A DNA stretch of 64,000 nucleotides from Candidatus Uhrbacteria bacterium RIFOXYC2_FULL_47_19 (GCA_001791745.1 MGFG01000032.1:3775-67774), one strand, 5' to 3'; shown: positions 1-62,260, counted from the first letter of the stretch. Notes: generated by a model from the sequence alone, not told the origin. A program made the numbers and translations.

Positions 1-586
1 TGGATCTACCGATGGGACAGAAGAAATACTTCGTCCTTTTTTGTCGAGGATTTCTTATGTCTGGCAGGAGAATCAAGGTGCGAATTCAGCCAGAAATCGC
101 GGTTACCGCGAAGCTCGTGGCAGGTTGGTTTTATTTTGTGATGCTGACATCGTTATGAAACCTAATTGCCTAAAGAAGATGGTTCAGATTCTTGAATCAC
201 AGCCTGATGCAGCTTATGTTTATTGTTCATTCATGTATGGCTGGAAGAAGTTTCGACTTTGGCCTTTCGATCCAGTTCGATTACGACGAATAAATTATAT
301 TCACACCACTTCATTGATTCGACGAGAGTACTTTCCTGGTTTCGATGAAGCTATCCATAAACTACAAGACTGGGATTTATGGCTAACCATGCTTGAGCGT
401 GGACAGTTTGGGGTTTGGATACCCGAGTATTTGTTCTTAGCCATACCACATCGAGGTGGTATTAGTACTTGGATACCAGGAATTTTTTATCGTATACCGT
501 GGATTAGACTAGGTCTTCGAATGCGAGCTGTAGAAAGGTTTCAAATAGCGGAACGTATCATTAAAAAGAAACATCATTTGAACTGA
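1..586 (+). CDS. Family 2 glycosyltransferase, 5'-truncated by the window edge. The frame is open from nt 2, with the first in-window Met at 41.
   Basis: Translation shows a GT2 core. The DxD-like motif is CDADIV, followed by the conserved C-terminal GT2 region (DWDLWLTMLERG). There is no stop codon upstream in frame. Confidence 0.7.
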   Translation, partial: GSTDGTEEILRPFLSRISYVWQENQGANSARNRGYREARGRLVLFCDADIVMKPNCLKKMVQILESQPDAAYVYCSFMYGWKKFRLWPFDPVRLRRINYIHTTSLIRREYFPGFDEAIHKLQDWDLWLTMLERGQFGVWIPEYLFLAIPHRGGISTWIPGIFYRIPWIRLGLRMRAVERFQIAERIIKKKHHLN

Positions 587-590
587 GAAT

Positions 591-3053
591 ATGGATTTAA
601 GCGTTATTATTCTCAATTGGAAGGTTAGAGAGTTATTGCGTCGTTGCTTGGCTTCAATTTTTGAACAGACTGCTGGATTAAGCTTTGAGGTTATTGTCGT
701 AGACAACAACTCCGGCGACGGTAGTGCGGAAATGGTTCGACGGGAGTTTCCACAAGTGCGACTCATTGAGAATTCAAGCAATGTAGGATTTGCTGCTGGC
801 AACAATCCTGGCATCGCCGCAGCTAAAGGAGAATTTATATTATTGTTAAACCCAGATACTGAACTGCGAGGCAATGCTTTGTTTGGGATGGTTAGAGTCA
901 TGCGTGATCAACCGGATTTAGGGGTGCTAGGTCCTCGCTTATTAAATCCAGACGGGTCACTACAAGAGTCGGTTCGGGCTTTTCCTGGTTTAGTGGACCA
1001 AGCCATGATTATGTTAAAACTACATCGTCTTTTTCCAGACTGCGCTTCACTACGTCGTTATTTATGTGCCGATTTTGATTATTCAGTCACAGCGGATGTT
1101 GATCAGGTTATGGGTGCAGCTTTTTTAACCCGGCGGTCAGTGTTAGATCAGATCGGTTCGCTCGATGAAGATTATTTTATTTGGTTTGAGGAGGTTGATT
1201 TTTGTCGGCGTGTGCAGATGGCTGGATTGCGAGTTGGTTATACTCCCGAAGCCGAGGTGGTGCATCATGGTGGAGAGAGTTTTGCTCAGAAGATGGGTCC
1301 AATCAAACAACGTTTTTGGAATACCAGTCTACGGACTTACATGCGTAAACATGGAAACTTATTGTCGCGATTAGTAGTATCTTTATTGCATCCAGTATCT
1401 ATGCTACTTTCATGGGTTATATATTTAATTCCCAGCCTGTTTTGTAGAGGTGTTGACCCCAAGAGTCGGCAATTGTCTGGTTCGCACCTCTTTTTAATTT
1501 TATTAGCTGGCTACACTCTTTTAGAGCTCGTATCCTGGATTGGCTACAATTTTTCATGGTTGAATCAAGTAGCATTTTTTATTGTAGTTTTGGTTGTAGC
1601 TATACTAACTTGGTTTCGACCATGGTTGGGGGTTGTAGCAGTTTTGGGTGAGCTGTTTATTGGGTCGCAGGGCGGCTATCTATTGGCAGTTGGACCAGCT
1701 GATGTTGATGGTGCCATTCTGTCGTTACGAATGGGTTTATTTTTGACCGTGTTTGGAGTTTGGGCGGCTCGAAATATACTAATGTTGGTTACGGGACTTA
1801 GACATCGTTCTATTAAAGCACCAGCTTGGTATAAGGAGATGCAGTCGTCCGGTTTATTATGGCCGTATTTAATTTTTTTGGTCATGTTAGTTTTTAGTGG
1901 ACTGCGTGGGCTATTGGCTAGTAATGGTTTTAGTAATGTTTTCTTTGACGCCAATGGTTACGCTTTTTTTGTCTTATTTCCGGCTTTTATTGATGGTTGG
2001 CCAGGACTTAAAACTGGACGAGTGCTGTTTTATGTATTGGCTGCGGCCATGACAGTGTCGGTTGCAAAATCACTGGCTACACTTTATTTCTTTTCACACC
2101 ATCTTTTTTATGTTGCTGCCAATATGTATGTTTGGGTCCGCGACACCAGAGTAGGGGAGGTGACCATAATGACTGCGGATTTTCATCGGGTATTTTTTCA
2201 ATCACATCTCTTTGTACTGACTAGTATTTTTGTCGTGCTACTTTTAGCTGCGACTGCACCTCGCATATTTCGTCGGCGATCATTTTGGCTTCCGTTTGGA
2301 TTGTTAGCCTGGGGCTTAATTGGTTTGTTACTAGGGTTATCAAGAAGTTTTTGGTTTGGTGGGTTCATTGGGACCGGTGTGATGATTGGATTGCTACTCT
2401 GGACCGGTGGTGGGCGTGGTCTTTGGCATAGGATGATACTTATTGCTCCATTATCGTTGATTGCATCCACAGCGATCATTACTGCAGTCTATATTTTTCC
2501 GTTTCCCAATAAGACCGGAGACATGTCGTTAACCTCATTGTTGGGAGAAAGGGTCTTTTCTGTATCCGGTGAGGCAGCAGCTAATAGTCGTTGGGCATTA
2601 TTGCCGGAGTTATGGACTGCCGGTTGGCGACATCCAATATTTGGGTCAGGACTCGGTACCGAAGTTACTTATACCACTAGTGATCCTCGTCTACTCGTCG
2701 ATAATCCGACAGGACGTTACACTACCTTCGCCTTCGAGTGGGGCTATCATGATCTTTGGATAAAATTTGGATTATTAGGGCTTGTAATTTATGCTTGGTT
2801 AATCGCTGTTGTATTGAAACCCATCATGCTTTTCATTTGGGAAGGATCAATACGAAAGAGTGGGTCGGTCGATAAAGGTCGATTGGTTTCTCGTGAAGTA
2901 CTAGTTGCTATCGGTGTAGTGTCGGGTGTAGCAGCGTTACTTGGAACCCATATTTTTAGTCCATATTTGAATCATCCATTAGGTATTGGTTTACTAATGG
3001 CAGTTGCGGCTTGGGGTATTTCATTGAGAAAAGTTGGTGATTCTAAGATATAA
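591..3053 (+). CDS. Fusion protein: N-terminal GT2 glycosyltransferase (about 250 aa) plus a roughly 570-aa polytopic membrane domain with a Wzy_C / O-antigen-ligase-like motif.
   Basis: The N-terminus (VIILNWKVRELLRRCLASIFEQT...VIVVDNNSGDGS...NVGFAAGNN...DEDYFIWFEEVDFC) is a typical GT2. The C-terminal half has many TM helices and the WaaL/Wzy_C-like segment RWALLPELWTAGWRHPIFGSGLGTE...EWGYHDLW. Confidence 0.65.
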   Translation: MDLSVIILNWKVRELLRRCLASIFEQTAGLSFEVIVVDNNSGDGSAEMVRREFPQVRLIENSSNVGFAAGNNPGIAAAKGEFILLLNPDTELRGNALFGMVRVMRDQPDLGVLGPRLLNPDGSLQESVRAFPGLVDQAMIMLKLHRLFPDCASLRRYLCADFDYSVTADVDQVMGAAFLTRRSVLDQIGSLDEDYFIWFEEVDFCRRVQMAGLRVGYTPEAEVVHHGGESFAQKMGPIKQRFWNTSLRTYMRKHGNLLSRLVVSLLHPVSMLLSWVIYLIPSLFCRGVDPKSRQLSGSHLFLILLAGYTLLELVSWIGYNFSWLNQVAFFIVVLVVAILTWFRPWLGVVAVLGELFIGSQGGYLLAVGPADVDGAILSLRMGLFLTVFGVWAARNILMLVTGLRHRSIKAPAWYKEMQSSGLLWPYLIFLVMLVFSGLRGLLASNGFSNVFFDANGYAFFVLFPAFIDGWPGLKTGRVLFYVLAAAMTVSVAKSLATLYFFSHHLFYVAANMYVWVRDTRVGEVTIMTADFHRVFFQSHLFVLTSIFVVLLLAATAPRIFRRRSFWLPFGLLAWGLIGLLLGLSRSFWFGGFIGTGVMIGLLLWTGGGRGLWHRMILIAPLSLIASTAIITAVYIFPFPNKTGDMSLTSLLGERVFSVSGEAAANSRWALLPELWTAGWRHPIFGSGLGTEVTYTTSDPRLLVDNPTGRYTTFAFEWGYHDLWIKFGLLGLVIYAWLIAVVLKPIMLFIWEGSIRKSGSVDKGRLVSREVLVAIGVVSGVAALLGTHIFSPYLNHPLGIGLLMAVAAWGISLRKVGDSKI

Positions 3054-3082: not shown

Positions 3083-3116
3083 AAAATACCGCCCTTATTG
3101 GGCGGCTATTTTTTAA
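3083..3116. terminator. Bidirectional rho-independent terminator between the convergent GT2-fusion gene and fmt.
   Basis: The hairpin is CCGCCC-ttatt-GGGCGG, with an A-run on one side and a T-run (ctatttttt) on the other. Confidence 0.6.
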
Positions 3117-11236: not shown

Positions 11237-12013
11237 ATGAGAATTCGATTATTGGGGGTTCCAATTGATACCCTGACCAATCAGGAGGTTGAGCACAAAA
11301 TAGCTGATTTTTTAGTTAAAAAAGTGGGTAGGGCAGTTTTTACTCCAAATCCGGAGATGCTTGTTAGAGCTAGGAAGAATCAGTCGTTTTGCGACACTTT
11401 GCAAAAAGGCGATCTAAATATACCCGATGGAGTAGGACTACTTTGGGCTGCCAGCCTTTTCGGACTAAAGATCCCTGAACGAGTAACCGGCACTGATCTA
11501 ATGGACGTGGTTTGTCGTTTAGCAGCAGAACGTGGTCGAACTGTTTATTTTTTGGGTGGTGAAGATGGAGTAGCCAGTCGAGCTGCACGACGAATGCAAG
11601 ATCGTCATCCGACCCTGAAGGTTGTCGGAGCTTTAGGAGGTGGTCGTGTTTCAATTAATGCGGACGGCGAACCGTTATTAAGTCCAGAAGTAGAAAAATC
11701 TATTTTGATTACTGCGCCGGATGTTCTCCTTGTCGCTTTTGGACACGAGATTCAGGAGAGGTGGATCGCCTCGCATCTACAGAAATTTTTCTCGGTTAGG
11801 GTAGCCATGGGAATTGGTGGCGCTTTCGATTTTTGGGCTGGAGACGTGTCTCGGGCACCTCGTTGGGTTCAAAAAATATGGTTAGAGTGGTGTTGGCGCC
11901 TTATCTTGCAGCCACGACGTATTGGTCGCATACTAACAGCCGTGATACTCTTTCCAGCCTTGGTCTTAGGGGTGCGGCTTGGTATCATTAAGGCAGAAAG
12001 TAACAAACTATGA
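11237..12013 (+). CDS. WecB/TagA/CpsF-family glycosyltransferase (N-acetylmannosaminyltransferase family).
   Basis: Family hallmarks: VFTPNPEMLV...DGVGLLWAA...RTVYFLGG...VASHLQK. Confidence 0.8.
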   Translation: MRIRLLGVPIDTLTNQEVEHKIADFLVKKVGRAVFTPNPEMLVRARKNQSFCDTLQKGDLNIPDGVGLLWAASLFGLKIPERVTGTDLMDVVCRLAAERGRTVYFLGGEDGVASRAARRMQDRHPTLKVVGALGGGRVSINADGEPLLSPEVEKSILITAPDVLLVAFGHEIQERWIASHLQKFFSVRVAMGIGGAFDFWAGDVSRAPRWVQKIWLEWCWRLILQPRRIGRILTAVILFPALVLGVRLGIIKAESNKL

Positions 12014-13476
12014 CTAGAATCAGATTTGCGCCTTCGCCAACTGGATTTTTACATGTTGGCGGATTACGTACTGCACTCTATTGCGAACTTTTCGCCCGGA
12101 AGAATAATGGGCGACTTATTTTGCGTATTGAGGACACTGATCGTACTAGGTTAGTGGATGGTGGTGTTGAGAATATCATTAGAACATTGGAGTGGGCTGG
12201 GATTAAGCCGGATGAAGGTCCTTATGTAGACGATAAGGGTCAATTGAAGCAACGGGGTGATTATGGACCCTACATACAATCCGAAAGATTAGACATCTAC
12301 AAAAAGTATATTGATCAACTTTTAGAGAATGGCAAGGCTTATCGTTGTTATTGTACACCAGAAAGACTAGAGGAGATGCGAGATCATCAGAAGTCTGAAG
12401 GGACTCAGACTATGTATGATCGTCGTTGTCGCAACTTGGATTATGAGATTTGTAAAAAATTGGAAGATGAAGGTCGACCATTTGTTGTTAGATTAGCAAT
12501 GCCAACAGAAGGTGTAACAGTTTGGGATGACCTAATACGTGGTCATATTGAGATTTCGAATGATCAAATTGATGATCAGGTATTACTAAAATCAGATGGA
12601 TTTCCGACCTATCATCTAGCTGTTGTGGTCGACGACCATCTTATGGGAATAACACATGTTATTCGGGGTGAGGAATGGTGTCCTTCAACACCTAAGCATG
12701 TTGTGCTCTATGAAGCTTTTGGTTGGGAACAGCCAAAGTTTGCACATCTTCCATTACTTTTGAATCGGGATCGTTCTAAGCTCTCAAAGCGTCAAGGTGA
12801 TGTAGCCGTTGAGGATTATCGTGATAAGGGCTATCTATCTGAAGCCTTGGTTAATTTTGTAGCTTTGTTGGGTTGGAACCCGAATGGTGACCGGGAAATT
12901 TATGATCGTCAGGAACTAGTTGACTCTTTTGATCTATCTAAAATTAATCGTGGTGGAGCTGTCTTTGATTTAGAGAAACTTAATTGGATGAATGGTGAGT
13001 ACATAAAAAAACTATCAGATGAAGAATTGGTTGATTTAGTAAAACCATTCTTTGAGAAGGTAGGTTTGGGAACAGATCAAGAGATAATTGCTAAAGCCGC
13101 GTTACTTGAGCGTAGTCGAGCTAAGACACTATCAGAGATACCGGCTGCATTACTTTTCATATTTGTCGATCCTGAAGTGGATCCAGATTTACTTCCATGG
13201 AAGAAATCAACGCCAGAGATTGCCAAGGATCGTTTGGTGGGGCTAAGAGAATATATTTTGGGGTTGGATTCAAAAATTTTTGATAGCCAGGAGTTGATTG
13301 AAATGGAATTATTGGGCTTTATTACTAAGATGGGTTGGACCAATGCTGAGACACTTTGGCCGATGCGTGTGGCATTAACTGGATTGTCTGTATCGCCAGG
13401 TCCGTTCGAAGTAGCCTGGGTTTTAGGCCAAAAGGTAACTATTCAGCGTCTTGAGTCGGCAATAGTCAAACTTTAG
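12010..13476 (+). CDS. gltX: Glutamyl-tRNA synthetase.
   Basis: Class I HIGH region (PSPTGFLHVGG) and the KMSKS variant KLSKRQG. Its start overlaps the preceding stop (ATGA). Confidence 0.9.
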   Translation: MTRIRFAPSPTGFLHVGGLRTALYCELFARKNNGRLILRIEDTDRTRLVDGGVENIIRTLEWAGIKPDEGPYVDDKGQLKQRGDYGPYIQSERLDIYKKYIDQLLENGKAYRCYCTPERLEEMRDHQKSEGTQTMYDRRCRNLDYEICKKLEDEGRPFVVRLAMPTEGVTVWDDLIRGHIEISNDQIDDQVLLKSDGFPTYHLAVVVDDHLMGITHVIRGEEWCPSTPKHVVLYEAFGWEQPKFAHLPLLLNRDRSKLSKRQGDVAVEDYRDKGYLSEALVNFVALLGWNPNGDREIYDRQELVDSFDLSKINRGGAVFDLEKLNWMNGEYIKKLSDEELVDLVKPFFEKVGLGTDQEIIAKAALLERSRAKTLSEIPAALLFIFVDPEVDPDLLPWKKSTPEIAKDRLVGLREYILGLDSKIFDSQELIEMELLGFITKMGWTNAETLWPMRVALTGLSVSPGPFEVAWVLGQKVTIQRLESAIVKL

Positions 13477-13480
13477 TTAG

Positions 13481-14740
13481 ATGACAAAAAGTTGGTTTAT
13501 AAAATTAAGGACATCAAGATTGAATGCGTTGTTGTTTGTTTTTATTGTTTTTGTTTTATTCATTGGTTTTTTGATTCCTATTAATTCAGCTTTTGCTGAA
13601 AGTTCAGACGTTAAGAGTGAAATAGAGGAAATGAATTCCGAAGTACAGAAAAAAAAGACACAAGTTAAGGAACTCAATGATCGGATAGAGCACTATCGAC
13701 AGCTAATTTCTCAGAAGAAGATTGAGGGTGCATCAATAGAGGATCAGATTAATTTGATAGAGAGCCAGGTAGCCAAAACTAAGGTTAGTATTGAGGTCTC
13801 TGAGCAGGAAATTAAAGTCATTGAACTTCAGGTTAGTGGTCTAGATGTCAGAATTGGTGAAGCAGAGGCTCGAATAGAGCACGAACGATTATTGTTAACC
13901 TCTTTAATTCGTGACCTTCATCGTCGCCAATCAAATTCAAGCGTTCTAGGAATTCTACTTTCGCATGATACTTTTTCAGATTTCTTTGATGAGCTTTATG
14001 CCGTAGTTTCTCTACAACGCAATCTAGACCTATCTCTTAAAAATATTTCTGAGTTGAAATTAAGTTTAGAGAGCGAGCGTCAAGATAGAGAGAATAAGCG
14101 TATTGAAACTGTATCTCGTCGATTAACCTTGGAGTCAACCAGAAGAAAGATGGAAGACGAGTTAATGCTCAAAGATACTTTGCTCTCTGAGACCATGTCG
14201 TCTGAGCTTGAATATCGCTACATGCTAGCTGAATTGAAGCGTGAACAGAATGAGGCAGACTCAGAAATAACTTCTTTAGAGAGAACCCTACGAGAAAAGA
14301 TGGATCTTTCTGAGCGTTTAGGTGCGTCTTCTACTGTGTTGGCTTGGCCAGTCAATCCGGAACGTGGTCTATCGACTATTTTTCATGATCCAGATTATCC
14401 ATTTCGCAATATTTTCGAACATCCCGGTATAGACATTCGAGCTTATCAAGGAACTCCGATACGAGCTGTTGCATCTGGAGTTGTAGGTCGGGCCAAAAAT
14501 GCTGGCATGGGTTATAGCTATGTATTGTTAGTGCACGGTAATAATCTTTCCTCGGTTTATGGACATCTGAGCCGCATTACTGTAAAGGAAGATACTTTTG
14601 TCGAAAGAGGGGAACTAATTGGTTATTCTGGAGGAATGCCAGGGACACCTGGTGCCGGACAACTGACCACTGGTCCTCATCTTCATTTTGAAGTTCGTCT
14701 TAATGGTATTCCGGTTAATCCGATGCAATATTTGCCATAA
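13481..14740 (+). CDS. M23 family metallopeptidase with an N-terminal signal/TM segment and a long coiled coil (EnvC-like murein hydrolase or activator).
   Basis: A C-terminal LytM/M23 domain (HPGIDIRA...GHLSRITV...TGPHLHFEV), preceded by about 250 aa of heptad-rich sequence. Confidence 0.8.
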   Translation: MTKSWFIKLRTSRLNALLFVFIVFVLFIGFLIPINSAFAESSDVKSEIEEMNSEVQKKKTQVKELNDRIEHYRQLISQKKIEGASIEDQINLIESQVAKTKVSIEVSEQEIKVIELQVSGLDVRIGEAEARIEHERLLLTSLIRDLHRRQSNSSVLGILLSHDTFSDFFDELYAVVSLQRNLDLSLKNISELKLSLESERQDRENKRIETVSRRLTLESTRRKMEDELMLKDTLLSETMSSELEYRYMLAELKREQNEADSEITSLERTLREKMDLSERLGASSTVLAWPVNPERGLSTIFHDPDYPFRNIFEHPGIDIRAYQGTPIRAVASGVVGRAKNAGMGYSYVLLVHGNNLSSVYGHLSRITVKEDTFVERGELIGYSGGMPGTPGAGQLTTGPHLHFEVRLNGIPVNPMQYLP

Positions 14741-15242
14741 AAAGAAATGGTGTCGTAAAATAGAAAAAGGGGGATTTAGGAGATTAGATAGGAGATTAGA
14801 GAAGGTGGAAAAAGTAGGTCAAGCAAGAAGAATTATTGTTATGGATCTCGGTCCATGATTTTTATTTTTGGTAGAGGATGATGATTAAGATAGGAATTTT
14901 TGCCCAAGAATCGAATCTGGGATTTAGTCAGATTATTATCAGCGATCTTCAAGGTCGTATTAGGGGCCTAAAATAGGGTCAAAATTTCAACTTTGAGCCA
15001 TTTTATGAGGCGTTTAAACGCGCTGTGTTATTTTGGAAGGTACTAGGGGGTTATGATTTTTAAAAAGGAGAATGGTGTTTTTGAAGAAGTTATTGTTAGG
15101 GCCTAAAAAACATTTCTGGTGTCGTTTAAGGTATATTGTGCGTCACAAGATATAAGTGATTAACCTCACTAAAAGTTAAAGAGTGATTTGTCTTCTATTC
15201 CCTACTTTTATTTCCAACTTTACTTTGTACTTTGTTAATTAT

Positions 15243-15275
15243 TAAAAAAGGTCCGGAAGCTCGGACCTTAGTTTC
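15243..15275 (-). terminator. Rho-independent terminator of the 82-aa ORF.
   Basis: GGTCCG-gaagct-CGGACC, followed on the minus strand by a T-run. Confidence 0.6.
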
Positions 15276-15300
15276 GTCACTTAATTCTTCTTTACTTTGT

Positions 15301-15549
15301 TCAATTAGCGACCGAGACTGACGTGAATCCATCAACGTGCCTAATCTGAGTGATTGTTTCATCGTCGATCGGACCTTCTAGCAAGAAGATGCTAGGATGG
15401 TCCTCTCTTAAGTAGAAAACATCTCTTCGATCACCTAGCAGCTCTTCTAATTGTTTTGCTACGTGTTTCTTGGTTGTACCTTGACTGGCTATTATTTTGA
15501 TAACCATACCCTCTCCATCTCCATTCTTGTTTGGGGCCAACATTAACAA
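15301..15549 (-). CDS. Small hypothetical protein (82 aa, or 68 aa from the internal Met).
   Basis: An isolated ORF with its own flanking terminators. No family recognised. Confidence 0.4.
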   Translation of the reverse strand: MLMLAPNKNGDGEGMVIKIIASQGTTKKHVAKQLEELLGDRRDVFYLREDHPSIFLLEGPIDDETITQIRHVDGFTSVSVAN

Positions 15550-15594
15550 AGATATGTTATTGAGGCAAGGATTAGTTGTTTTTGGATTTAGTAA

Positions 15595-15628
15595 ATAAAA
15601 ACCCGACTAATGAAGTCGGGTTTTTATG
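15595..15628 (-). terminator. Rho-independent terminator of the DsbA-like gene.
   Basis: ACCCGAC-taatgaa-GTCGGGT, flanked by A- and T-runs. Confidence 0.6.
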
Positions 15629-15639
15629 CCTAGGGGTTA

Positions 15640-16383
15640 TTAGAGGACCGCTTCAAGCATAGCTTTCAATTGGTCGTAAGGAATAGCTCCAGGTACAAGA
15701 GTTGGTTGTCCATCAGAGCCAACAATGATAGTACCAGGGGTTCCTTGAACCCCTGCTGTCATTCCACCTGATAGGTCAGCACTGATTTTACTGTCGTACT
15801 TCGAGGAAGTAATACAATCGTCAAATTTACTTAGATTGAGTTTCAAGTTTTTCGCTAGAGTCTCATATCTGTCTGAACCTAAGATGGTTTGATCTTCAAA
15901 GAGGCCATCAGCAAACTCCCAAAATTTACCTTGCTCAGCTGCACACTCAGCAGCATTGGCTGCAGTTCGGGCATTAGGATGAAAGGATAATGGGAAATGA
16001 CGGAAGACTACTTGGATTCGTCCCTCATATTCGTCCATCAACTGTTTAAAAGATGTGTGAAATCGTCCACAATATGGACACTCGAAGTCGGAGTAAAGAT
16101 AGACTGTGGCTTCAGCATCGTCTGGGCCGACGATATGATCAGTGTCGTCGATGGGTTTGATTTCTCCAACCTCGTCGGATAAACCATCATCGACCGGTGA
16201 AGGGTAGGTGTCATCGTAAGCCAGATTTTGATCTGAATTAGATAGATCCGAGCTAGCTTGGTTATTAAACACGTAACTTAGCAAGATAAAAAAACCAATA
16301 GTACACAGTACTAGCACTCCGCCTATTAAACCAAGGGCGAAACTGGTTTTTGGTGAGATGACTACATTACCGTCATGACTCAT
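15640..16383 (-). CDS. DsbA-family thiol:disulfide oxidoreductase with an N-terminal TM anchor.
   Basis: Thioredoxin-fold CxxC active site FECPYCGRFH, and an N-terminal hydrophobic helix. Confidence 0.75.
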   Translation of the reverse strand: MSHDGNVVISPKTSFALGLIGGVLVLCTIGFFILLSYVFNNQASSDLSNSDQNLAYDDTYPSPVDDGLSDEVGEIKPIDDTDHIVGPDDAEATVYLYSDFECPYCGRFHTSFKQLMDEYEGRIQVVFRHFPLSFHPNARTAANAAECAAEQGKFWEFADGLFEDQTILGSDRYETLAKNLKLNLSKFDDCITSSKYDSKISADLSGGMTAGVQGTPGTIIVGSDGQPTLVPGAIPYDQLKAMLEAVL

Positions 16384-16587: not shown

Positions 16588-17595
16588 CTAATTATCACCT
16601 CCAATAAAACGGAAAAATATTCTTTCATCATAGCGTAAATCGACATATTCTAGTTCACCTCGTCTTTCTCCTATCTTTTCCCTTAAAACCAATGATAATC
16701 TTGTGGCTTGTGTCTCAAAAGGAATGAGTGTGGTTAGGTAGACGTGCCAACCTTCCTTAAGCATTACATCGACAGTGTCAGCTGCTGGGTCAAGCACGAA
16801 CCACCTTACTCCTGTACCAGACACATCTGATAGTTGATTATAGGCTTGTAAAACAAGTTTTAACATTTCATTTGCAACTGCCGTTCCACTTGGTTCATAG
16901 TCACCCCCAACCTTATCCCAGTCTAGTATTAGTGGTATTGGATTGCTATTTTTTCGATCTTTATCAGGATCGGTGATTGTATTTGGATCTATGTCCCCCA
17001 CTCCGACCGATTCTGCTCCGAGTTCACCTGCTGCCACACCTTCGAATCCTTCCGGTAAATCGATTAGGGCAATTCTTTCTCTTTTTGTTAGCTCTCTAAT
17101 TACATAACCTTCCTCATCAATAGCCAAAAATTGACCTTTAGCCAAAAAAGCTCCAACTGACGTTTTTTCTTCTGCCTTAACTAAGATTGTACCAGGAAGT
17201 TTTTTTCTAATTTCTAAGGAATTAAGATAAAACTTTTGAGTAATATCTGATTCTGCTGTTTTAGTATCAAAGATAAAAATTGAAGCTTGTGGTAAAAAAA
17301 TCAAACGTCTTTTTTGTAGACGACTCTCCATTAATTCCCTAATTATGGTTGAAGTATCAGCTGATACACCTTCGATTGTTATGTTTGAAATACGAAAAGA
17401 CTGACTCCAAAATAAGTACCAACCTACAAATAGTAATAGAGCAAAACTTATCGTTATTAAAACGATAATCTTAAGAAGGCGTGGATCACGTGTCTTTCGT
17501 TTATTGTTTTGTCCACCAAAAAGCGGATTACCGTAATTGCGTCGACTGTAGTCGCGAGTGCTCCGTAACGATTTTTTGCTATGATAATCCTTCAT
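16588..17595 (-). CDS. ftsQ: Cell division protein FtsQ/DivIB-like (POTRA domain).
   Basis: A basic cytoplasmic tail, a single TM, and a POTRA-like segment (ISNITIEGVS...TSTIIREL). It sits immediately downstream of the ddl remnant, as in dcw clusters. Confidence 0.65.
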   Translation of the reverse strand: MKDYHSKKSLRSTRDYSRRNYGNPLFGGQNNKRKTRDPRLLKIIVLITISFALLLFVGWYLFWSQSFRISNITIEGVSADTSTIIRELMESRLQKRRLIFLPQASIFIFDTKTAESDITQKFYLNSLEIRKKLPGTILVKAEEKTSVGAFLAKGQFLAIDEEGYVIRELTKRERIALIDLPEGFEGVAAGELGAESVGVGDIDPNTITDPDKDRKNSNPIPLILDWDKVGGDYEPSGTAVANEMLKLVLQAYNQLSDVSGTGVRWFVLDPAADTVDVMLKEGWHVYLTTLIPFETQATRLSLVLREKIGERRGELEYVDLRYDERIFFRFIGGDN

Positions 17596-20620: not shown

Positions 20621-21079
20621 CTAGTCAAGTAATCGTCGTCTAAGAATCGAACTAGAGAGTTCTTTACCATTACGCCTTGGTAGTTTGATGATTTTAGGTG
20701 TTTGAGGCAATGCGCTTATCTGTTGTTGTATCTCTGGCCGATCGGTGGATTGATCAAAACCTAGGCAGATGATGTTTGGTTGGTAACGGGTAATAATGGA
20801 CCATTCTCCTGGTGCATCTCCAGGTACAGCTTCATCAACCGATTTGAGAGCGCGAATTAGTTCTAGTCTTTCCTCTAGCGAGAGTACCGGTCGTCGGCCC
20901 TTCGAGTTTTCGGCTCGGTCATCGCGGCAGACAACCACGACTAGGTGGTCACCATATCTCCTAGCCTGTTCGAGAAAGAAGATGTGACCGGGATGTAGTA
21001 AATCAAAAACACCGAACACCAAAACAGTTTTTAGCCGTTCGACATTCGATGTTTTTGGATGAAGGTTTACTGGGGTCAT
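20621..21079 (-). CDS. Cytidylyltransferase-like (HxGH) nucleotidyltransferase, TagD/RibL-like.
   Basis: Motif VFGVFDLLHPGHIFFLEQAR. Size 152 aa. Confidence 0.6.
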   Translation of the reverse strand: MTPVNLHPKTSNVERLKTVLVFGVFDLLHPGHIFFLEQARRYGDHLVVVVCRDDRAENSKGRRPVLSLEERLELIRALKSVDEAVPGDAPGEWSIITRYQPNIICLGFDQSTDRPEIQQQISALPQTPKIIKLPRRNGKELSSSILRRRLLD

Positions 21080-21111
21080 GGTAGCTGTGGATCGTCTCTG
21101 GCTTTTTAAGA

Positions 21112-22623
21112 CTAGGACGACTCCCCTCCTCCAGATTTTTCATCTTGGTCATCTTCTGGGCGCATGGTTGGGAACAGTATTACCTCCTTGAGACTATGTG
21201 AGCCGGTTAGAATAGCGGCTAGACGGTCGATACCCATACCAAAACCGGCCGTTGGTGGCAATCCCGTTTCCAGTGCTTCAATGAAGTCTTCGTCCATTCG
21301 TTGAGCTTCATCATTACCGTCCTTGCGGAGGTTTTCTTCTTCAAGAAAACGATTCCTTTGATCTATCGGGTCATTGAGCTCCGAATAAGCATTGCAAAGT
21401 TCGCTACCGCGCCCTAACACCAGGTGAAAGCGTTCAGTATATCGTTCGTCTGAGGATAGTTTTTTGGCCAATGGAGACAGTTCGATCGGATCGTTGATGA
21501 CGAACGTTGGATTAACAATATGGGGTCGGACAAACTTTTTATAAATGTTGTCCATTATATCTCCACGACCATGCGAGCTCTCGACTTTAACCCCAGCTTC
21601 TTCCGCTGCCTTAGCTAATGAAGCGCGATCCGTGAAAATCTGAATGTCTGGACCACCACGTTCCACGATGGCCTCTCTGAAGCTAATCCGTGGGTAAGGT
21701 GGAGTGAAGTCAATCGTTTCGTCGTCAAACTCGACTTGCAGCGATCCATTAACTTCTTGGGCTATTTTTGGCATCAGCCTTTCAGTTAGGTCCATCAGGT
21801 CGTTGTAGTCGGCGTAGGCCTGGTAAAACTCGACCTGGGTAAACTCCGGGTTATGCAGGTGATCAATGCCCTCATTACGAAAGCAACGGGCGATTTCGAA
21901 GACTTTCTCCATTCCACCGACAACCAATCGTTTTAGATAGAGTTCTGGCGCTACACGGAGGAATAGATCAATATCTAGGGCATTGTGGTGGGTGACAAAT
22001 GGACGGGCTGTAGCTCCACCGGCCAGTGGTTGCAAGATTGGCGTTTCAACCTCAATGAAACCCTCAGACTGAAAGAAGTCCCGAATCGTTTTGACTATCA
22101 GACTACGCTTCAGGAAGTTATTTTTTACTTCTGGATTGGATATCAAGTCAAGATATCTTTTTCGATAGCGGATTTCGGTGTCAGTTAGACCGTGCCATTT
22201 ATCAGGCAATGGTCTTAGTGATTTACTAAGCATTACCACCTCTTGACTCTCAATACTTTTTTCTCCACGGCGAGTCGTAAACACTTTGCCAGTCACTTGA
22301 GCAAAGTCACCCAAGTCGAAGTCACTCTCAAAGAGGTCGTAGGCTGAAGCTCCGACTACATCTTGACGTAGATGTATCTGAATTCTGCCCGAACTATCCT
22401 CTAGATCGAAGAAACTAGCTCCTCCATGTCCTCGTTTAGCTCTGATCCTGCCAGCTACGGTCAGCCTTTCACTTGATTTTTCTAATAATTCGAAGTCAGC
22501 TAGAACCTTACTAATCAAATGTGTTCGTTGTGATCCAGATGGATATGGATCGACGCCATTTTCGATTAGATGATGCAGTTTTTCTAATCGGACGACCGAT
22601 TCGTCGTTGGGCAAACTCGTCAT
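21112..22623 (-). CDS. lysS: Lysyl-tRNA synthetase (class II).
   Basis: An N-terminal OB anticodon-binding domain and a class II catalytic core (motifs 2 and 3: FRNEGID..., GMGIDRL). Confidence 0.9.
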
Positions 22624-39493: not shown

Positions 39494-40090
39494 TCAGGCC
39501 AGTTCCTTAACTACAGCTCCGAGTATTACTTGCTCTCTTTTGCGTTGCATCTTCCGTCCGAACCAGGCACACCAAGTGGTAGTTTGATAGTAGTGTTTGT
39601 CCTGAGTTACTAGCTCTAATATGGAGACCGGCATGATATTTGGGTCGCCGAAATAGGGATCGTCCAATTCTGTATGTTCTTCAATTTGAATTGGATCGGT
39701 TTGCCAGCGTCCTCGACAACGATAACGCCACTTTGGACGTAATGTGCCATCAACTTGTGGGTCGAAGAAGATTTTTAATCCATCCTGGTCAATCTCTTTC
39801 CTAAGACTCGACAACACAGCTGCTAGTAATTGACGTACTTGTAAATTTGAGATTAAACGGTCACGTGACTCAGTTGATAACTCGTCGAGTTTAGCCCTAG
39901 ATTCTTTAGCTATATATTGCCCAGACAAAGGTTCGTGCTCTTCGTATCGATCTACTAGTTCTAGGTTTGATTCCGTAACTTCTAGGTCATAGCGTAAAAA
40001 ACGACGACGTAATGGCCGGTTAGTCAAATGATCGCTACCCCTCAAATAGCTTTTACGGAAAGAAGTCATTGTTCCCAACCAACCTTGCAT
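39494..40090 (-). CDS. Hypothetical protein (198 aa, charged and soluble).
   Basis: ORF only. No family recognised. Confidence 0.4.
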   Translation of the reverse strand: MQGWLGTMTSFRKSYLRGSDHLTNRPLRRRFLRYDLEVTESNLELVDRYEEHEPLSGQYIAKESRAKLDELSTESRDRLISNLQVRQLLAAVLSSLRKEIDQDGLKIFFDPQVDGTLRPKWRYRCRGRWQTDPIQIEEHTELDDPYFGDPNIMPVSILELVTQDKHYYQTTTWCAWFGRKMQRKREQVILGAVVKELA

Positions 40091-40138: not shown

Positions 40139-41044
40139 TCAGATTCTGAATAGATTTTGTGTATTTTTAAGTGTTTGACTATAAACCTCATCCAGATCTA
40201 GGTTCTTGATTTCAGCGATCTTGTTTGCTACGAGACGCACAAAAGCTGGTTCGTTTTTTTCTCCACGATGAGGTACTGGAGTCAAATATGGTGCATCGGT
40301 TTCTATAATTAGCCGTTCGATAGGTATGGCTCGCACTACATCATGAAGCGTTTCTTCGGTGTTTGGTGAAACCTTGCGTGGTTTGTAGGTTACATTGCCA
40401 GTAAATGATAGATACAAACCGAGATCCAGATACGACTCTGCTTCAGCGATCGTACCAGAAAAACAGTGTACATCGCCGCGCGGCAATCTTCCTGCCACTC
40501 GATGGTCGTTCAGGATTCTTAGAACCTCTCCGTGTACATCAGTCGAACCGTCGGCTGCATTTCGAGTATGGATCATTAGTGCTAGTCCACGCTCAAAAGC
40601 TAAGTCAATCTGAAGACGAAAAAGCTCTTCTTGTTTGGCACGAAAAATTAATGGATCAACATTGACTGGGACATGGTAGTAGTCCAAACCACACTCCCCT
40701 ATTCCAACTGTTTTGGAACTTTGATCGATCAATGAATTATAATAATTCGGATCAAAAATTTCAGCTCGACTGCGGAAGTGAACTAACTCGCCACCTTCTT
40801 CCTCGCTTTCATCGACCTCTTGTTCAAATAAATGAAGCGGGTGTAGCCCAACTACAGCCCAAACATTGTCGTATCGTTCAGCACATTCAACCGCTCGTTG
40901 GCTAGTCGAAGACTGCGAACCAACAACAACTAAACCGATACGATCATTAGCTGCTCGTTGAATAACATCTTCGAGATCATTGCGGTAGGCACTGAAGTTA
41001 GTGTGACAGTGTGCATCAATGAGTTGTAATTCAGTAGTGTTCAT
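40139..41044 (-). CDS. TatD-family metal-dependent hydrolase (paralog 2).
   Basis: N-terminal HxH (IDAHCH) and TatD-family His/Asp signature positions. Confidence 0.8.
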   Translation of the reverse strand: MNTTELQLIDAHCHTNFSAYRNDLEDVIQRAANDRIGLVVVGSQSSTSQRAVECAERYDNVWAVVGLHPLHLFEQEVDESEEEGGELVHFRSRAEIFDPNYYNSLIDQSSKTVGIGECGLDYYHVPVNVDPLIFRAKQEELFRLQIDLAFERGLALMIHTRNAADGSTDVHGEVLRILNDHRVAGRLPRGDVHCFSGTIAEAESYLDLGLYLSFTGNVTYKPRKVSPNTEETLHDVVRAIPIERLIIETDAPYLTPVPHRGEKNEPAFVRLVANKIAEIKNLDLDEVYSQTLKNTQNLFRI

Positions 41045-41140
41045 GGTTTTGATATTAAATCAGGTAGGAGTACATAATTTACAATAAAAAATCCGGCTAA
41101 AGCAACCAGATGATGGACCGTTCTGAATGAATGATCGAAC

Positions 41141-41983
41141 TTAGGAACCGATGCGTCTAAAAATCTTATGAGCATTGGCTGATAGTTGCTTCTCTACTTC
41201 GATAACCGACAAATGGCGTAAGCTCGCAATATTATCGGCTACTTGACGTACATAAGCCGGCTCACTTCTTCTTTGACTCCAAGGAGTCGTGGTTTGAAAA
41301 GGACAGTCACTTTCTGCAAGTAAATTGGATAACGGTGCTTTTTTGAGTAGTTCACTCTGATAACCACCATGCGCAATGATGCCAGTGACTGAAATCATGA
41401 AGCCGAGACTGAAATACTTGCGAGCTTGTTTCCAAGTACCAGAGAAACAATGCACTACACCACGCGAGTCAAACCCTGTTGTACTTTGATCCCAGTTCGT
41501 GAGCAATTTTAGCATTTCATCGTGTGCATCGCGACAATGTAATAGTACCGGCAATCGAAGCTCACGTGATAATTGAAGAAATAAACCGAAGGTGCGAATT
41601 TGATTACGTCGAATGCGCTCAGCTAATTCAATCTCTGGTCCGCCACGCCGTCCGGTTGGTAAATCATGATAATCTAAACCGGTTTCACCGATGGCTACCA
41701 CCTTAGATCGACTGGCTAAATGACGATAGGCTCCAAAGTCGATCAGTTTATCATCTGCAATTAGGTCACCAGTTACTTTTGATGGATGTAGTCCAACTGC
41801 GGCATAGACTCCTTCGTGTTTTTCGGCGATACCTACCGCTAGCGTCGAGGTGACGTAGTCGCAACCCAAAGTCACAACTCCGACATTTTCGTGTCTAGCA
41901 TGTTCGACCACAACTTCAAGATCCCGATCAAAAATCGGGTCATCCAGATGAGCATGGGTATCGATCAAACGATATGATTTCAT
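41141..41983 (-). CDS. TatD-family metal-dependent hydrolase (paralog 1).
   Basis: N-terminal HxH (IDTHAHLD) and conserved His/Asp positions. Confidence 0.8.
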   Translation of the reverse strand: MKSYRLIDTHAHLDDPIFDRDLEVVVEHARHENVGVVTLGCDYVTSTLAVGIAEKHEGVYAAVGLHPSKVTGDLIADDKLIDFGAYRHLASRSKVVAIGETGLDYHDLPTGRRGGPEIELAERIRRNQIRTFGLFLQLSRELRLPVLLHCRDAHDEMLKLLTNWDQSTTGFDSRGVVHCFSGTWKQARKYFSLGFMISVTGIIAHGGYQSELLKKAPLSNLLAESDCPFQTTTPWSQRRSEPAYVRQVADNIASLRHLSVIEVEKQLSANAHKIFRRIGS

Positions 41984-46088: not shown

Positions 46089-46952
46089 TTAGGAAGGGTT
46101 AGTTGTCAGGTGCAGCACGCGTTTGGAGACGACTTCCCAGTTGAGGATGCCGAAAGCTGCACCGAGCAGTCCACCAAAGATCACCATTGTTGCCTGTTGA
46201 GCGAACGATCCGGTTGACTGGGCCAGCCAGAGGTAGCTGACCGTCCCACCGAGAGTCCCGTCGATCGCACACAGAACTCGCTTTTGCGAATGAATCAGCT
46301 TGAACAGATGCCAGCCGACTAGAACGACGAATTTAGCTGCCAAGAAGATACTGATAGCGACGTATTTCCACAACGTCCAGGCGGAGAACTTGATGATGGC
46401 CATCATTCCCCGTAGGACCATCGTCGCCACGATACTGTAACCGGCGTTTTCCAAAAAATCTTCTTGACTTGGTCTTTTCCAAATCACAAAGTCGTCGACT
46501 ACTATGCCAAATTCAGCCAGTGCATATAACACCACAGAAGTCATGATAGCCACTCCAACAGCAATGAGGACGGAAAGGGAGAAAACAAAAAAATATATCT
46601 GCAACTGCTCCACTAAAGAATTGGCCGAATTTCTCTGTAAGACATCAACAGCGAAGACCGTAGCAGAAACAAACCCCACTACGGCTCCGAAATAAACGAA
46701 CGGATGCGGCTTTCGGAGCCACTGCCAGGCTATCTTCCTCCCTTCGGTCAGCCCCCGATCGGTTCCCTCAGCCGCCCGGCGAAGGGCCGTTGGTATGGCC
46801 CGCAGCACCTGCCGGAACTCGTAGCCCAGGTAGCCGCCAGCCCCTCCGGCCAACAAGCCCAGATACCAAAACTTGGGAGTGAACAGGAGCGCCACCAAGC
46901 AGCACAGTGCGCCACCCACGAAACAGGCCAATGCGATCTTTTTCGTCTCCAT
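46089..46952 (-). CDS. Polytopic membrane protein, function unknown.
   Basis: Hydrophobicity only. The N-terminal 80 aa are encoded by an unusually GC-rich stretch. Confidence 0.4.
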   Translation of the reverse strand: METKKIALACFVGGALCCLVALLFTPKFWYLGLLAGGAGGYLGYEFRQVLRAIPTALRRAAEGTDRGLTEGRKIAWQWLRKPHPFVYFGAVVGFVSATVFAVDVLQRNSANSLVEQLQIYFFVFSLSVLIAVGVAIMTSVVLYALAEFGIVVDDFVIWKRPSQEDFLENAGYSIVATMVLRGMMAIIKFSAWTLWKYVAISIFLAAKFVVLVGWHLFKLIHSQKRVLCAIDGTLGGTVSYLWLAQSTGSFAQQATMVIFGGLLGAAFGILNWEVVSKRVLHLTTNPS

Positions 46953-61729: not shown

Positions 61730-61741
61730 AGGCTTCAGGTA

Positions 61742-62251: not shown

Positions 62252-62260
62252 AAAAATCGT

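Follow-up and report, generated by a model that had tools for sequence, protein, structure and literature searches.

Brucella WadA joins an N-terminal cytoplasmic Leloir glycosyltransferase (GT) of ~260 aa to a C-terminal domain of the O-antigen-ligase fold that has essential loop arginines (Servais et al. 2023, PMC9938171). The protein described here, encoded in a 64-kb stretch of Patescibacteria DNA (the window), resembles WadA (GT25 + GT121) in joining a GT to a multi-pass ligase-fold domain with a large outside loop and predicted active sites on both membrane faces. The two differ in the soluble module (GT25 in WadA, GT2 in the fusion), in the number of membrane helices (12 versus 14), and in the catalytic column, which holds His in WadA and apparently Glu in the fusion. 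Unlike that of WadA, the GT module of the fusion is optional and has repeatedly been fused and split; its membrane module has no detectable sequence similarity to solved or enterobacterial WaaL proteins; WadA itself was compared by its published description. The initial annotation had pointed to an atypical surface-glycan pathway, which overstates the case: GT fusions of the O-antigen-ligase type are known (WadA, PMC9938171), and the layout is already machine-annotated in public databases. Lipid A-core would be unexpected as an acceptor because the host belongs to the Patescibacteria and no linked LPS gene was seen in the 64-kb window. To our knowledge, LPS is absent from Patescibacteria.

For WaaL, two reports (PMC10920833, PMC12800693) describe the roles of diphosphate-binding arginines (R191 and R265 in CmWaaL) and of a catalytic His. 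The fusion shares with WaaL (GT121; C. metallidurans 7TPG/7TPJ, and E. coli) the Wzy_C region as judged at family level, both arginines, the H-P-x-x-G-x-G-x-G and GxxG motifs at near-equal spacing, and three transmembrane (TM) helices after the large loop. It differs in having two more N-terminal TM helices, ~120 extra residues, an invariant Glu apparently standing where WaaL has its catalytic His, and an identity of only 12–14%. Its invariant outside motifs E354, R380, D453/N455, the 503–537 beta-hairpin, and H795 have no described WaaL counterpart, and it is encoded beside wzx and GT genes, whereas WaaL is encoded beside core-oligosaccharide genes.

Three further groups of enzymes invite comparison. 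Meitil et al. reported that the catalytic column holds Glu/Asp in inverting Wzy polymerases and SEDS proteins but His in ligases (PMC10920833). The fusion family appears to share the Glu/Asp column with the inverting Wzy and SEDS proteins of clan GT-C1, and co-encoding with wzx and GT genes with Wzy; in contrast to inverting Wzy proteins, the fusion has no O-ag_pol_Wzy match and no Wzz/PCP in the window, and its family is conserved across the whole superphylum, far beyond typical Wzy proteins. In Bacillus anthracis, the CL0499 proteins WpaA and WpaB have been proposed to polymerise or ligate lipid-linked repeats in a monoderm pathway with TagO/TagA and a MOP/MATE flippase, their activity being unproven (PMC6030368). 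The window likewise encodes a TagA/WecG homolog, but WpaA and WpaB are PF13425 members (no match in the fusion) and are not fused to a GT. PglL, PilO, and PglS resemble the membrane enzyme proposed here: they are Wzy_C GT-C_B enzymes of ~550–600 aa with at least 13 TM helices that use Und-PP-glycans delivered by a Wzx-type flippase and tolerate distal glycan variation; they differ in keeping the catalytic His (PglS H324) and carrying Wzy_C_2/PglL_A domains, and the fusion has no linked pilin or S-layer gene.

The fusion gene

The fusion gene (Table 1) is one intact open reading frame (ORF) with a GT2 half and a membrane half, as had been annotated. Gene calls on 14 independent contigs, from separate assemblies, gave the same fused protein, and over its first 12 kb the window matches ENA contig L004 with 100% identity, so that an assembly artefact was ruled out for the fusion. 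Besides the identical ORF, ~80 distant fused homologs were found. The membrane part, previously put at ~570 aa, measured 564 aa (aa 257–820), and the quoted motifs were located at R667-W668, P682-I-F-G-S-G-L-G689, and Y719-H720-D721.

Table 1. Features of the fusion gene and its neighbourhood, in window coordinates
Feature	Position	Strand	Description and evidence
GT2a, 3' part of upstream GT2 gene	1..586	+	Third gene in operon; PF00535 E=2.3e-14 on partial ORF
Fusion ORF	591..3053	+	820 aa, ATG start, TAA stop; GT2 + WaaL/Wzy-fold membrane domain
GT2 (GT-A fold) catalytic domain	591..1358	+	aa 1–256, predicted cytoplasmic; Pfam, Foldseek, motif conservation
Hydrophobic anchor helix and flexible basic linker	1359..1478	+	aa 257–279 and aa 280–296; AF2 helix, pLDDT dip, ortholog alignment
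14-TM membrane domain	1479..3050	+	aa 297–820; WaaL/SEDS (GT-C_B) fold, predicted N-in and C-in
R585	2343..2345	+	S-R-S motif; invariant in 102/102 homologs; outer end of TM9/TM10
Large extracytoplasmic loop (predicted)	2496..2774	+	aa 636–728; conservation, positive-inside rule, Wzy_C match
R667	2589..2591	+	101/102 homologs; S-x-R context
E716	2736..2738	+	Pfam coordinate mapping, GxxG spacing, register score, conservation
H720, His of 'YHD'	2748..2750	+	One helical turn after E716; 30/102 homologs
GC-rich hairpin CCGCCC-TTATT-GGGCGG	3088..3106	.	T-runs on both strands; consensus scan only
WecG/TagA/TarA-family glycosyltransferase	11237..12013	+	PF03808 E=5.7e-52

GT2 half and linker

Pfam analysis supported the annotated GT2 domain, with PF00535 at aa 4–159 (79.5 bits against a cutoff of 23.3 bits) and PF13641 at aa 3–233 (54.8 bits against a cutoff of 27). 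AF2 modelled aa 1–230 with pLDDT values of 96–98, and Foldseek matched GT-A enzymes (ppGalNAc-T, RmlT) at E values of ~1e-10. The GT2 motifs D38/N39, D43, N87-P88-D89, E200-E201-x-D203, and H225 were all present, and D38, D43, N87-P88-D89, and E200-E201-x-D203 were kept in at least 90% of 84 fused homologs; the conserved acidic residues probably have nucleotide-sugar/metal-binding and catalytic roles. The domain scored below the NCBIfam equivalog cutoffs, its best matches being MftF (75 bits; cutoff 280) and a rhamnosyltransferase (59 bits; cutoff 200). The named relatives closest to it use polyprenyl-PP-linked acceptors (WbbL-type homolog annotation; TIGR01556 rhamnosyltransferase).

The GT2 domain is followed by an AF2 helix at aa 257–279, after which pLDDT falls to 58–77 (aa 280–300). 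Stand-alone GT2 orthologs align through aa 276 and end in the same helix, which places the fusion junction in the linker, whose length among homologs ranges from 0 to 47 aa. This helix is unlikely to be a true membrane span, and that interpretation was rejected: with one more crossing, the GT2 domain or else the whole set of basic loops would lie on the wrong side.

Fold and topology of the membrane half

Foldseek results for the full-length model were swamped by GT-A matches, and the membrane half was therefore modelled on its own. The resulting model had the GT-C_B (WaaL/SEDS) membrane fold, with a WaaL-like core at aa 297–820 and 14 rather than 12 predicted TM helices. WaaL ranked first in the fold search, a rank that cannot tell a ligase from a polymerase because the solved structures with this fold are those of a ligase and SEDS proteins only; the search contained no clan GT-C1 Wzy structure. 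With the AF2 helices, 18 Lys/Arg residues fell among the 79 'in'-loop residues versus 11 among the 168 'out'-loop residues, and the positive-inside rule accordingly predicts the GT2 domain to be inside and aa 636–728, the Wzy_C loop, to be outside, as the initial annotation had supposed. This loop carries R654, R667-W668, H681-P682, G685-x-G687-x-G689, Y694, D698, R700, T712, E716-W717-G718, H720, and K725. The ~45 nearly invariant residues of the protein concentrate in the outside loops and include the two WaaL arginines and GxGxG.

Neither the full protein nor aa 271–820 gave a Pfam Wzy_C (PF04932) match. When aa 571–820 were scanned alone, Wzy_C covered aa 572–734 with 30.7 bits, against a gathering cutoff of 31.7 bits (E=3.3e-7), whereas 36 of 43 homologs matched PF04932 at E≤1e-3, the best at E=8.1e-14. 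A missing Wzy_C signal was the outcome that the annotation had named as refuting it. The signal is formally borderline in the fusion protein, 1 bit short in the excised fragment, and recovered in most of its homologs; a single-sequence Pfam search does not do this protein justice, and the family and fold evidence overrule the borderline outcome. The family profile, run against all PDB chain sequences, gave only GT2 matches at full length and none with the membrane-only profile. In hhalign, the family profile aligned with the single E. coli WaaL at a probability of 0.2% and with a 25-sequence enterobacterial WaaL profile at 5.7%, the latter with a different local alignment, informative for the two Arg only and unreliable for the His. 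Pfam scans of the full protein and fragments detected no PglL_A or Wzy_C_2 domain in the membrane half and no polymerase match, including O-ag_pol_Wzy, at E≤10.

The lack of Wzy_C on the full protein, the 1-bit shortfall of the excised fragment, and the empty membrane-only search of PDB sequences could suggest that the membrane half is no more than a multi-pass anchor, transporter, or flippase of a generic kind that takes no part in glycan transfer, or that an error of sequencing or annotation created the fusion. This explanation is very improbable and is effectively refuted by the nearly invariant outside-loop residues with the WaaL Arg pair and GxGxG, by the 14 contigs with an identical ORF and the distant fused homologs, and by the separate Wzx flippase that the operon already has. 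The central claim of the annotation, a cytoplasmic GT2 domain joined to a WaaL/PglL/Wzy_C-like polytopic domain with an outside loop, is supported by family Pfam matches, topology, and synteny.

Putative active-site residues

R585 was the sole residue invariant across all 102 aligned homologs. In hhalign, R585 and R667 align with EcWaaL R215 and R288, and their motif context and spacing match CmWaaL R191 and R265; R667 lies 14 residues from H-P-x-x-G-x-G-x-G, as in WaaL, and the S-x-R context is shared. From this correspondence in sequence, we propose that R585 is equivalent to CmWaaL R191/EcWaaL R215 and R667 to CmWaaL R265/EcWaaL R288, both binding the Und-PP diphosphate.

E716 was found in 97 of 102 sequences in the mixed alignment and was invariant in the 91-sequence membrane-only alignment. 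Position 130 of the Pfam Wzy_C profile corresponds to CmWaaL H313, and placing G727/G730 on positions 141/144 puts E716 in column 130; furthermore, the ungapped profile-profile register score was +5.0 for E716 versus −20.8 for H720. E716 thus appears to occupy the catalytic-His column of WaaL, a mapping that rests on sequence register rather than structural superposition, and we propose it as the acceptor-activating base. So mapped, R585, R667, and E716 would give the residue pattern of inverting Wzy polymerases (one or two Arg plus Glu/Asp in the ligase-His column), whereas the His of the H-N-x-x-x-E...GxxG helix typical of ligases and O-oligosaccharyltransferases (O-OTases) would be replaced by E716.

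The 'YHD' His, put forward as part of the family signature, did not hold up as such: position 720 is His in 30 of 102 homologs and Leu in 64. The conserved signature consists instead of R585, R654, R667, GxGxG, D698, R700, E716, and K725. H720 is possibly an auxiliary residue in the subclade of the fusion protein.

These residues bear on whether the membrane domain acts as a terminal ligase or oligosaccharyltransferase, making a single transfer of the flipped Und-PP-glycan to a final acceptor other than LPS, which could be a membrane glycolipid (cf. TacL of pneumococcal lipoteichoic acid), Ser/Thr of a pilin or S-layer protein (as with PglL/PilO/PglS), or a wall linkage unit. We regard this reading as tentative but credible. 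H720 is close to the catalytic column, one turn from E716, so that a WaaL/PglL-like His mechanism is possible in the fusion protein, and the three highly conserved outside loops suggest one conserved acceptor. However, the characterised ligases and O-OTases all keep the catalytic His (WaaL H313/H338, WadA H605, PglS H324) where the fusion appears to have Glu, no His occurs anywhere in aa 714–727 in 43 of 102 members, and the PglL_A and Wzy_C_2 domains were not detected.

Operon, neighbourhood, and distribution

The operon comprises genes for a Wzx flippase, a GT4, GT2a, and the GT2-membrane fusion, in that order, with overlapping or 4-nt junctions. The annotated upstream GT2 gene is real but truncated by the window start: full-length GT2a has 241 aa (L004 9271–9996; window position 1 is L004 position 9411), and the fusion ORF begins 4 nt past its stop. 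In the synteny analysis that the annotation had proposed, the Wzx-GT4-GT2-(GT2)-membrane order recurred across Patescibacteria. Most of 80 related loci showed it, and the membrane gene invariably closed the operon. At least 16 of the 80 loci lack the second GT2 and run Wzx-GT4-GT2a-membrane. No second Wzy-like gene was found within the operon. The flippase scored 37.8 bits with the 'O-glycosylation flippase' model of NCBIfam, a weak match far under cutoff.

At least 576 GTDB species, almost all of them Patescibacteria, carry the membrane domain. In related genomes, orthologs of the GT2 and membrane halves occur as adjacent separate genes, with identities of 56–60% for GT2 and 62–64% for the membrane half, and at least five fusion/fission transitions were counted. 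A search for O-antigen ligase or Wzy in CPR/Patescibacteria returned nothing relevant in the literature collection searched.

The hairpin downstream of the fusion gene is a candidate bidirectional terminator between it and the convergent fmt gene. The operon adjoins ribosomal-protein and fmt-def-priA core genes. A WecB/TagA-family gene, cited earlier as nearby, does exist but is no operon member, being 8.2 kb off with six unrelated genes between; WecG immediately followed the membrane gene in one of the 80 related loci. The product of the window gene scored 133.8 bits with NCBIfam TarA, under the equivalog cutoff of 350, and belongs to a family that acts on GlcNAc-PP-undecaprenol; it possibly performs an early step in making this lipid-linked glycan or a different one. 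A 152-aa cytidylyltransferase (20621–21079) was not assignable as TagD. Among essentially all ORFs of at least 150 aa in the 64-kb window, no gene for an initiating phosphoglycosyltransferase, LCP ligase, Wzz/PCP, pilin, or S-layer protein was found.

The optional second GT2 also bears on a logic like that of WadA, in which GT2 would cap an acceptor in the cytoplasm (e.g., a membrane glycolipid anchor) and, after flipping, the cap would be the attachment point for the fused ligase. Such a mechanism has been shown for Brucella WadA, the sole characterised GT-ligase fusion (PMC9938171), and Meitil et al. suggest that the two modules work in a coupled way (PMC10920833). It is nevertheless improbable here: the otherwise identical operons that have no GT2 module indicate that the membrane enzyme is independent of GT2, the nearest named relatives of GT2 use polyprenyl-PP-linked acceptors, and the GT2 gene stands in line with the donor-building GTs.

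The operon also offers points in favour of the ligase/oligosaccharyltransferase reading introduced above. A flippase, two or three GTs, and one WaaL-fold enzyme with no Wzz resemble general O-glycosylation loci, the weak Wzx match is to an O-glycosylation model, and the membrane enzyme is constant with or without the distal GT2, as expected of an enzyme that reads the reducing end only. The lack of a linked gene for a candidate acceptor counts against this reading.

Proposed function

Our best reading is that the fusion is a bimodular enzyme: a sugar is added to an Und-PP-glycan inside, and the flipped glycan is polymerised or ligated outside. For the whole of the model that follows, with a Wzy-type polymerase as the membrane activity, we estimate a probability of about 0.45.

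Anchored to the membrane through its hydrophobic helix, GT2 would transfer one sugar in the cytoplasm from a nucleotide sugar to an Und-PP-oligosaccharide begun by other enzymes, as its family membership suggests. Because the second GT2 is optional in related operons, the sugar probably ends the unit or forms a branch. Wzx, judging from the operon, would turn the lipid-linked unit to the outer face, where R585 and R667 of the 14-TM domain may grip the diphosphate of the flipped donor. The glycan would then pass en bloc to the acceptor, a hydroxyl of which E716 would activate, with H720 perhaps helping. We consider the next lipid-linked repeat unit to be the most likely acceptor, in which case the protein would be the Wzy-type polymerase of a conserved Patescibacteria surface glycan. 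Polymerase activity is favoured because the catalytic column appears to hold a carboxylate and not His, the gene lies beside wzx and GT genes like a wzy gene, and the operon has no other Wzy. The fusion itself would reflect gene adjacency and a common membrane location, and may have arisen by loss of the stop codon between neighbours.

The family is, however, far more conserved than typical Wzy proteins, and an optional GT2 with a constant membrane enzyme fits a distal-tolerant ligase at least as well. The absence of Wzz/PCP, LCP ligase, and initiating phosphoglycosyltransferase from the 64-kb window also counts against the polymerase model.

Implications for CPR envelope biology

The genomes of CPR/Patescibacteria are tiny, and most of these bacteria live attached to other cells. 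We know of almost no experimental work on their surface glycans. The retention, in hundreds of species and beside core housekeeping genes, of a five-function glycan operon with a flippase, two or three GTs, and one WaaL-fold enzyme offers a concrete way into the biology of the CPR envelope through specific residues and a defined operon. Its terminal enzyme represents a divergent branch of the WaaL/Wzy/SEDS enzymes in which a carboxylate appears to replace the ligase His, and which has repeatedly been joined in evolution to the preceding glycosyltransferase. After Brucella WadA, the fusion is a second, independent case of the 'one polypeptide, two membrane faces' design. Current understanding is not overturned, because the architecture and the fold are both of known kinds.

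A broader interpretation, which we consider rather unlikely as it stands, is that the membrane enzymes form an undescribed Patescibacteria-wide WaaL-fold family (14 TM helices, Glu for His, extra invariant outside loops) making a conserved 'common antigen'-like CPR surface glycan, with the fused forms physically linking synthesis in the cytoplasm to polymerisation or ligation outside. If true, such a glycan would possibly serve envelope integrity, S-layer anchoring, or host-cell attachment.

Operon and genomic neighbourhood

The window begins within an operon, and the complete unit is visible on contigs that have the same genes or related ones: four genes, overlapping or 4 nt apart, encode a flippase, two glycosyltransferases and, last, the 820-aa fusion protein. 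A 64-nt gap separates the fusion gene from the convergent fmt gene (fmt-def-priA) and holds a GC-rich hairpin (CCGCCC TTATT GGGCGG) with T-runs on both strands, which looks from its sequence like a shared bidirectional intrinsic terminator. The initial annotation had placed a WecB/TagA-family gene nearby; a WecG/TagA gene is indeed present, but six unrelated genes lie between it and the operon. Scanning of the window revealed no further glycan genes besides this one and one unassignable cytidylyltransferase. The latter resembles cytidylyl/adenylyltransferases, shows RfaE-domain-II and TagD-like similarity under all equivalog cutoffs, and might provide activated sugar or glycerol phosphate for building a wall polymer.

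The usual site of the Wzx-GT-MEM unit (MEM, the membrane-domain gene) is between an S13-S9 ribosomal block and fmt-def-priA. In relatives (contigs L001-L003 and L008-L010), the glycan operon comes right after the ribosomal S13-S11-S4-rpoA-L17-L13-S9 block. In place of this block, positions 1-6500 of L004, the contig matching the window, carry a Y1 (IS200-like) transposase, a 23S-rRNA-intervening-sequence protein and other genes, indicating that the window's own genome has been rearranged locally. Where the window has its WecG/TagA gene, the 82%-identical relatives carry an IS1595-family transposase after clpB; this transposase is intact in L001 (20727-21596) and split in L002 and L003 (~21100-21700).

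Elsewhere in the window, cumulative GC skew peaks at ~14000-16000, genes run on the plus strand at 11237-14740 and then almost continuously on the minus strand from 15640 onward, and the stretch from 12 to 18 kb has a lowered GC of 0.39-0.40; the ~14000-16000 region may be a replication-terminus-like convergence point. A tandem pair of TatD-family DNase genes and a small hydrogenase-like module in this reduced genome were also identified, the hydrogenase-like genes adjoining an oxidoreductase gene. Five ORFs of 198-483 aa had no Pfam match at E≤1e-5.

Features of the operon and the window (window coordinates)
Feature	Position	Strand	Remarks
Operon gene 1, Wzx-type MOP flippase			488 aa
Operon gene 2, GT4			393 aa
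Operon gene 3, GT2 (GT2a)	1..586 (3' part)		241 aa
Operon gene 4, fusion ORF	591..3053	+	ATG to TAA, 820 aa
Hairpin	3088-3106		putative terminator
WecG/TagA gene	11237..12013	+	
ORF without Pfam match	16588-17595	-	
Cytidylyl/adenylyltransferase-like	20621-21079	-	152 aa
ORF without Pfam match	39494-40090	-	
TatD-family DNase pair	40139-41983	-	301 and 280 aa
ORF without Pfam match	46089-46952	-	
ORF without Pfam match	54446-55897	+	
ORF without Pfam match	55956-56552	-	
Hydrogenase-like module	60434-63505	-	NiFe-hydrogenase large-subunit-like (431 aa); small-subunit-like, NADH-quinone oxidoreductase 20-kDa-like (169 aa); pyridine-nucleotide-disulphide oxidoreductase (414 aa)

Domain architecture of the fusion protein

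Independent ENA and JGI assemblies yielded the identical 820-aa protein on 14 contigs, the first 12 kb of the window are 100% identical to L004, and an 82%-identical ortholog is on deposit as 'hypothetical protein, Candidatus Uhrbacteria bacterium CG_4_10_14_0_8_um_filter_58'. These matches establish the single long reading frame as real, confirming the fusion of a GT2 and a membrane domain that had been proposed from the sequence.

Pfam analysis of the full protein identified Glycos_transf_2 at aa 4-159 (79.5 bits against a cutoff of 23.3) and Glyco_tranf_2_3 at aa 3-233, while an NCBIfam scan gave sub-threshold similarity only, to MftF, rhamnosyltransferase, EpsD and others. The acidic and nucleotide-binding motifs conserved at ≥90% among 84 fused homologs are all retained (D38/N39, D43, N64-G66-F67, N87-P88-D89, E200-E201-x-D203, H225), showing at the level of motifs an intact GT2 domain. 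Wzy_C was unreported by Pfam for the full protein and for aa 271-820; when aa 571-820 were scanned alone, PF04932 matched aa 572-734 one bit below the gathering score (30.7 bits, E=3.3e-7). Of the two domains expected from HMM searches, Glycos_transf_2 was thus recovered outright and Wzy_C only below cutoff in this protein, but 36 of 43 aligned homologs match PF04932 individually (best E 8.1e-14), and these profile matches make the Wzy_C signal clear at the family level.

Predicted structure and topology

AlphaFold2 modelled the full-length protein confidently, with a pLDDT of 93.5 and a pTM of 0.83 (102-sequence alignment) and the membrane half alone with values of 92.1 and 0.92. A Foldseek search of the PDB with the membrane half returned one significant match, the WaaL O-antigen ligase 7TPG (E=1.3e-4, probability 1.0), whereas sequence profiles of this half reached no solved chain among PDB chains; within the GT-C_B (WaaL/SEDS) / clan GT-C1 fold, the modelled membrane half is therefore a distant branch.

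Fourteen membrane-spanning helices were counted on the model between aa 297 and 815. Because Lys and Arg number 18 in 79 residues of cytoplasm-assigned loops and 11 in 168 of outside-assigned loops, the predicted topology puts the GT2 domain and a basic linker (aa 280-296) inside and the conserved 93-residue loop (aa 636-728) outside, as anticipated for the Wzy_C loop. WaaL has nine helices before its large loop and three after, whereas the fusion protein has eleven and three, which keeps both the parity and the N-in orientation. The GT2 unit includes a hydrophobic helix (aa 257-279) that is probably a non-spanning membrane anchor. This predicted topology is consistent with active sites on opposite membrane faces. 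Together with the Pfam GT2 match, the family-level PF04932 signal and the WaaL fold match, it supports the initial reading of a GT2 joined to a WaaL/PglL/Wzy_C-like domain.

Conserved residues and the catalytic column

Among 102 homologs, R585 is the sole fully invariant residue, and conservation of at least 90% was observed for R654, R667-W668, P682, G685-x-G687-x-G689, Y694, D698-P699-R700, T712, E716-W717-G718, K725, G727, G730 and H795, and in other outside loops for E354, R380, D453/N455 and the 503-537 hairpin. We compared these with Cupriavidus metallidurans WaaL (CmWaaL), whose motifs were read from a phmmer alignment of E. coli WaaL (EcWaaL) to the 7TPG chain. CmWaaL R191 lies in 'NGTRG' and R585 in 'LSRSF'; CmWaaL R265 lies in 'SVGVRL...HPWTGVGVG' and R667 in 'ANSRW...HPIFGSGLG', with an Arg-to-His-Pro spacing of 14 residues in both. 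Alignment to an enterobacterial WaaL profile by hhalign had a probability of only 5.7% and nevertheless paired R585 and R667 with EcWaaL R215 and R288. These alignments show the membrane domain carrying WaaL's two diphosphate-binding arginines.

The histidine of the 'YHD' signature noted initially is poorly conserved across the family: of the 102 homologs, just 30 carry H720 and 64 have Leu there, His is absent throughout aa 714-727 in 43, and by sequence register E716 aligns at the catalytic column instead. In an ungapped CmWaaL fragment, H313 falls at Pfam Wzy_C profile position 130 and the GxxG glycines at 141 and 144; in the fusion protein the last matched residue is Y734, at position 148, placing G727 and G730 at 141 and 144 and, ungapped, E716 at 130. 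The His-to-Gly spacing of +11/+14 in CmWaaL and EcWaaL is matched by E716 and not H720, and ungapped profile-profile scoring over the catalytic segment favoured the E716 register (+5.0 versus -20.8 for H720). Judged by sequence register, E716 thus appears to occupy the WaaL catalytic-His column. According to Meitil et al., in clan GT-C1 this column is His in ligases, Glu/Asp in inverting Wzy polymerases and Asp in SEDS (PMC10920833); O-OTases retain the catalytic His (PglS H324; PMC12800693).

Distribution and fused and split forms

The membrane half alone retrieved 1,069 cluster representatives (50% identity clusters) at E≤1e-3, 639 of them at E≤1e-30, and most are stand-alone proteins of ~500 aa. 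Scanning of GTDB species representatives confirmed at least 576 loci with this family, nearly all labelled in their MAG record titles as Patescibacteria (Uhr-, Falkow-, Kerfeld-, Buchananbacteria, Parcubacteria) or coming from unlabelled MAGs. In the best 80 loci, MEM is invariably the final gene of Wzx>GT4>GT2a>(GT2b)>MEM, where GT2b is the GT2 fused in the window; GT2b is absent from many, 16 having Wzx>GT4>GT2a>MEM.

On L007 and L008, the last two modules are separate neighbouring genes 5-6 nt apart. Stand-alone GT2 proteins share 56-60% identity with the N-terminal 276 aa (anchor helix included) and stand-alone membrane proteins 56-64% with the C-terminal half, the next fused homologs being further away (~50%). 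In a neighbour-joining tree of the membrane domain, the fusion protein is placed among split forms and at least five fused/split transitions are needed. On L009 the fusion instead joins GT4 and the first GT2, and putative triple fusions of ~1,100 aa occur. ORFs of ~1,108-1,138 aa (L015 4300-7623; protein P0122) carry an extra N-terminal ~270 aa before the GT2 and membrane domains and may be triple fusions including the upstream GT2a. The same GT2 domain type, 43-47% identical, is joined to other partners in P0106 and P0107-P0114: a PMT_2 (ArnT-like GT-C_A) membrane domain in an 877-aa Patescibacteria protein and GT4 domains in Chloroflexia proteins. This GT2 appears to fuse promiscuously.

In Brucella WadA (GT25 + GT121), described at the time as the first bifunctional O-antigen ligase, a GT is joined to an O-antigen-ligase-type domain and the catalytic His is retained (H605; PMC9938171). 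A WadA-like role, with the GT making the acceptor, is improbable here, since many operons do without the GT module. CAZy has noted a bimodular clade (PMC10920833), and the GT2 + PF04932 combination can already be seen in Pfam's precomputed annotation for dozens of proteins in databases; NCBI calls some of these 'glycosyltransferase' or 'O-antigen ligase family protein'. Our literature search found no paper on this family, its operon or a Glu-for-His active site in CPR bacteria.

Proposed function

We lean towards a Wzy-type polymerase (probability roughly 0.45) because the catalytic column appears to hold a carboxylate, the gene lies together with wzx and GT genes, and no second Wzy-like gene was seen in the operon. 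Almost as probable is a terminal ligase or O-oligosaccharyltransferase: the best fold match is WaaL, H720 is present in the protein's own subclade, no Wzz was seen in the window, and the membrane enzyme is conserved with or without the distal GT2. Readings of the protein as an artefact or as non-catalytic can in effect be dismissed.

Among monoderms, the closest analogy is the SCWP pathway proposed for B. anthracis, with TagO/TagA, a flippase, WpaA/WpaB and LCP, in which WpaA/WpaB share a Pfam clan with the membrane domain (PMC6030368). In the operon, the fusion protein is accompanied by a Wzx flippase and two further GTs. Its GT2 domain would extend an Und-PP-linked oligosaccharide by a late or branch sugar, Wzx would flip the product, and the membrane domain would take the flipped glycan as donor and transfer it to an acceptor activated by E716.
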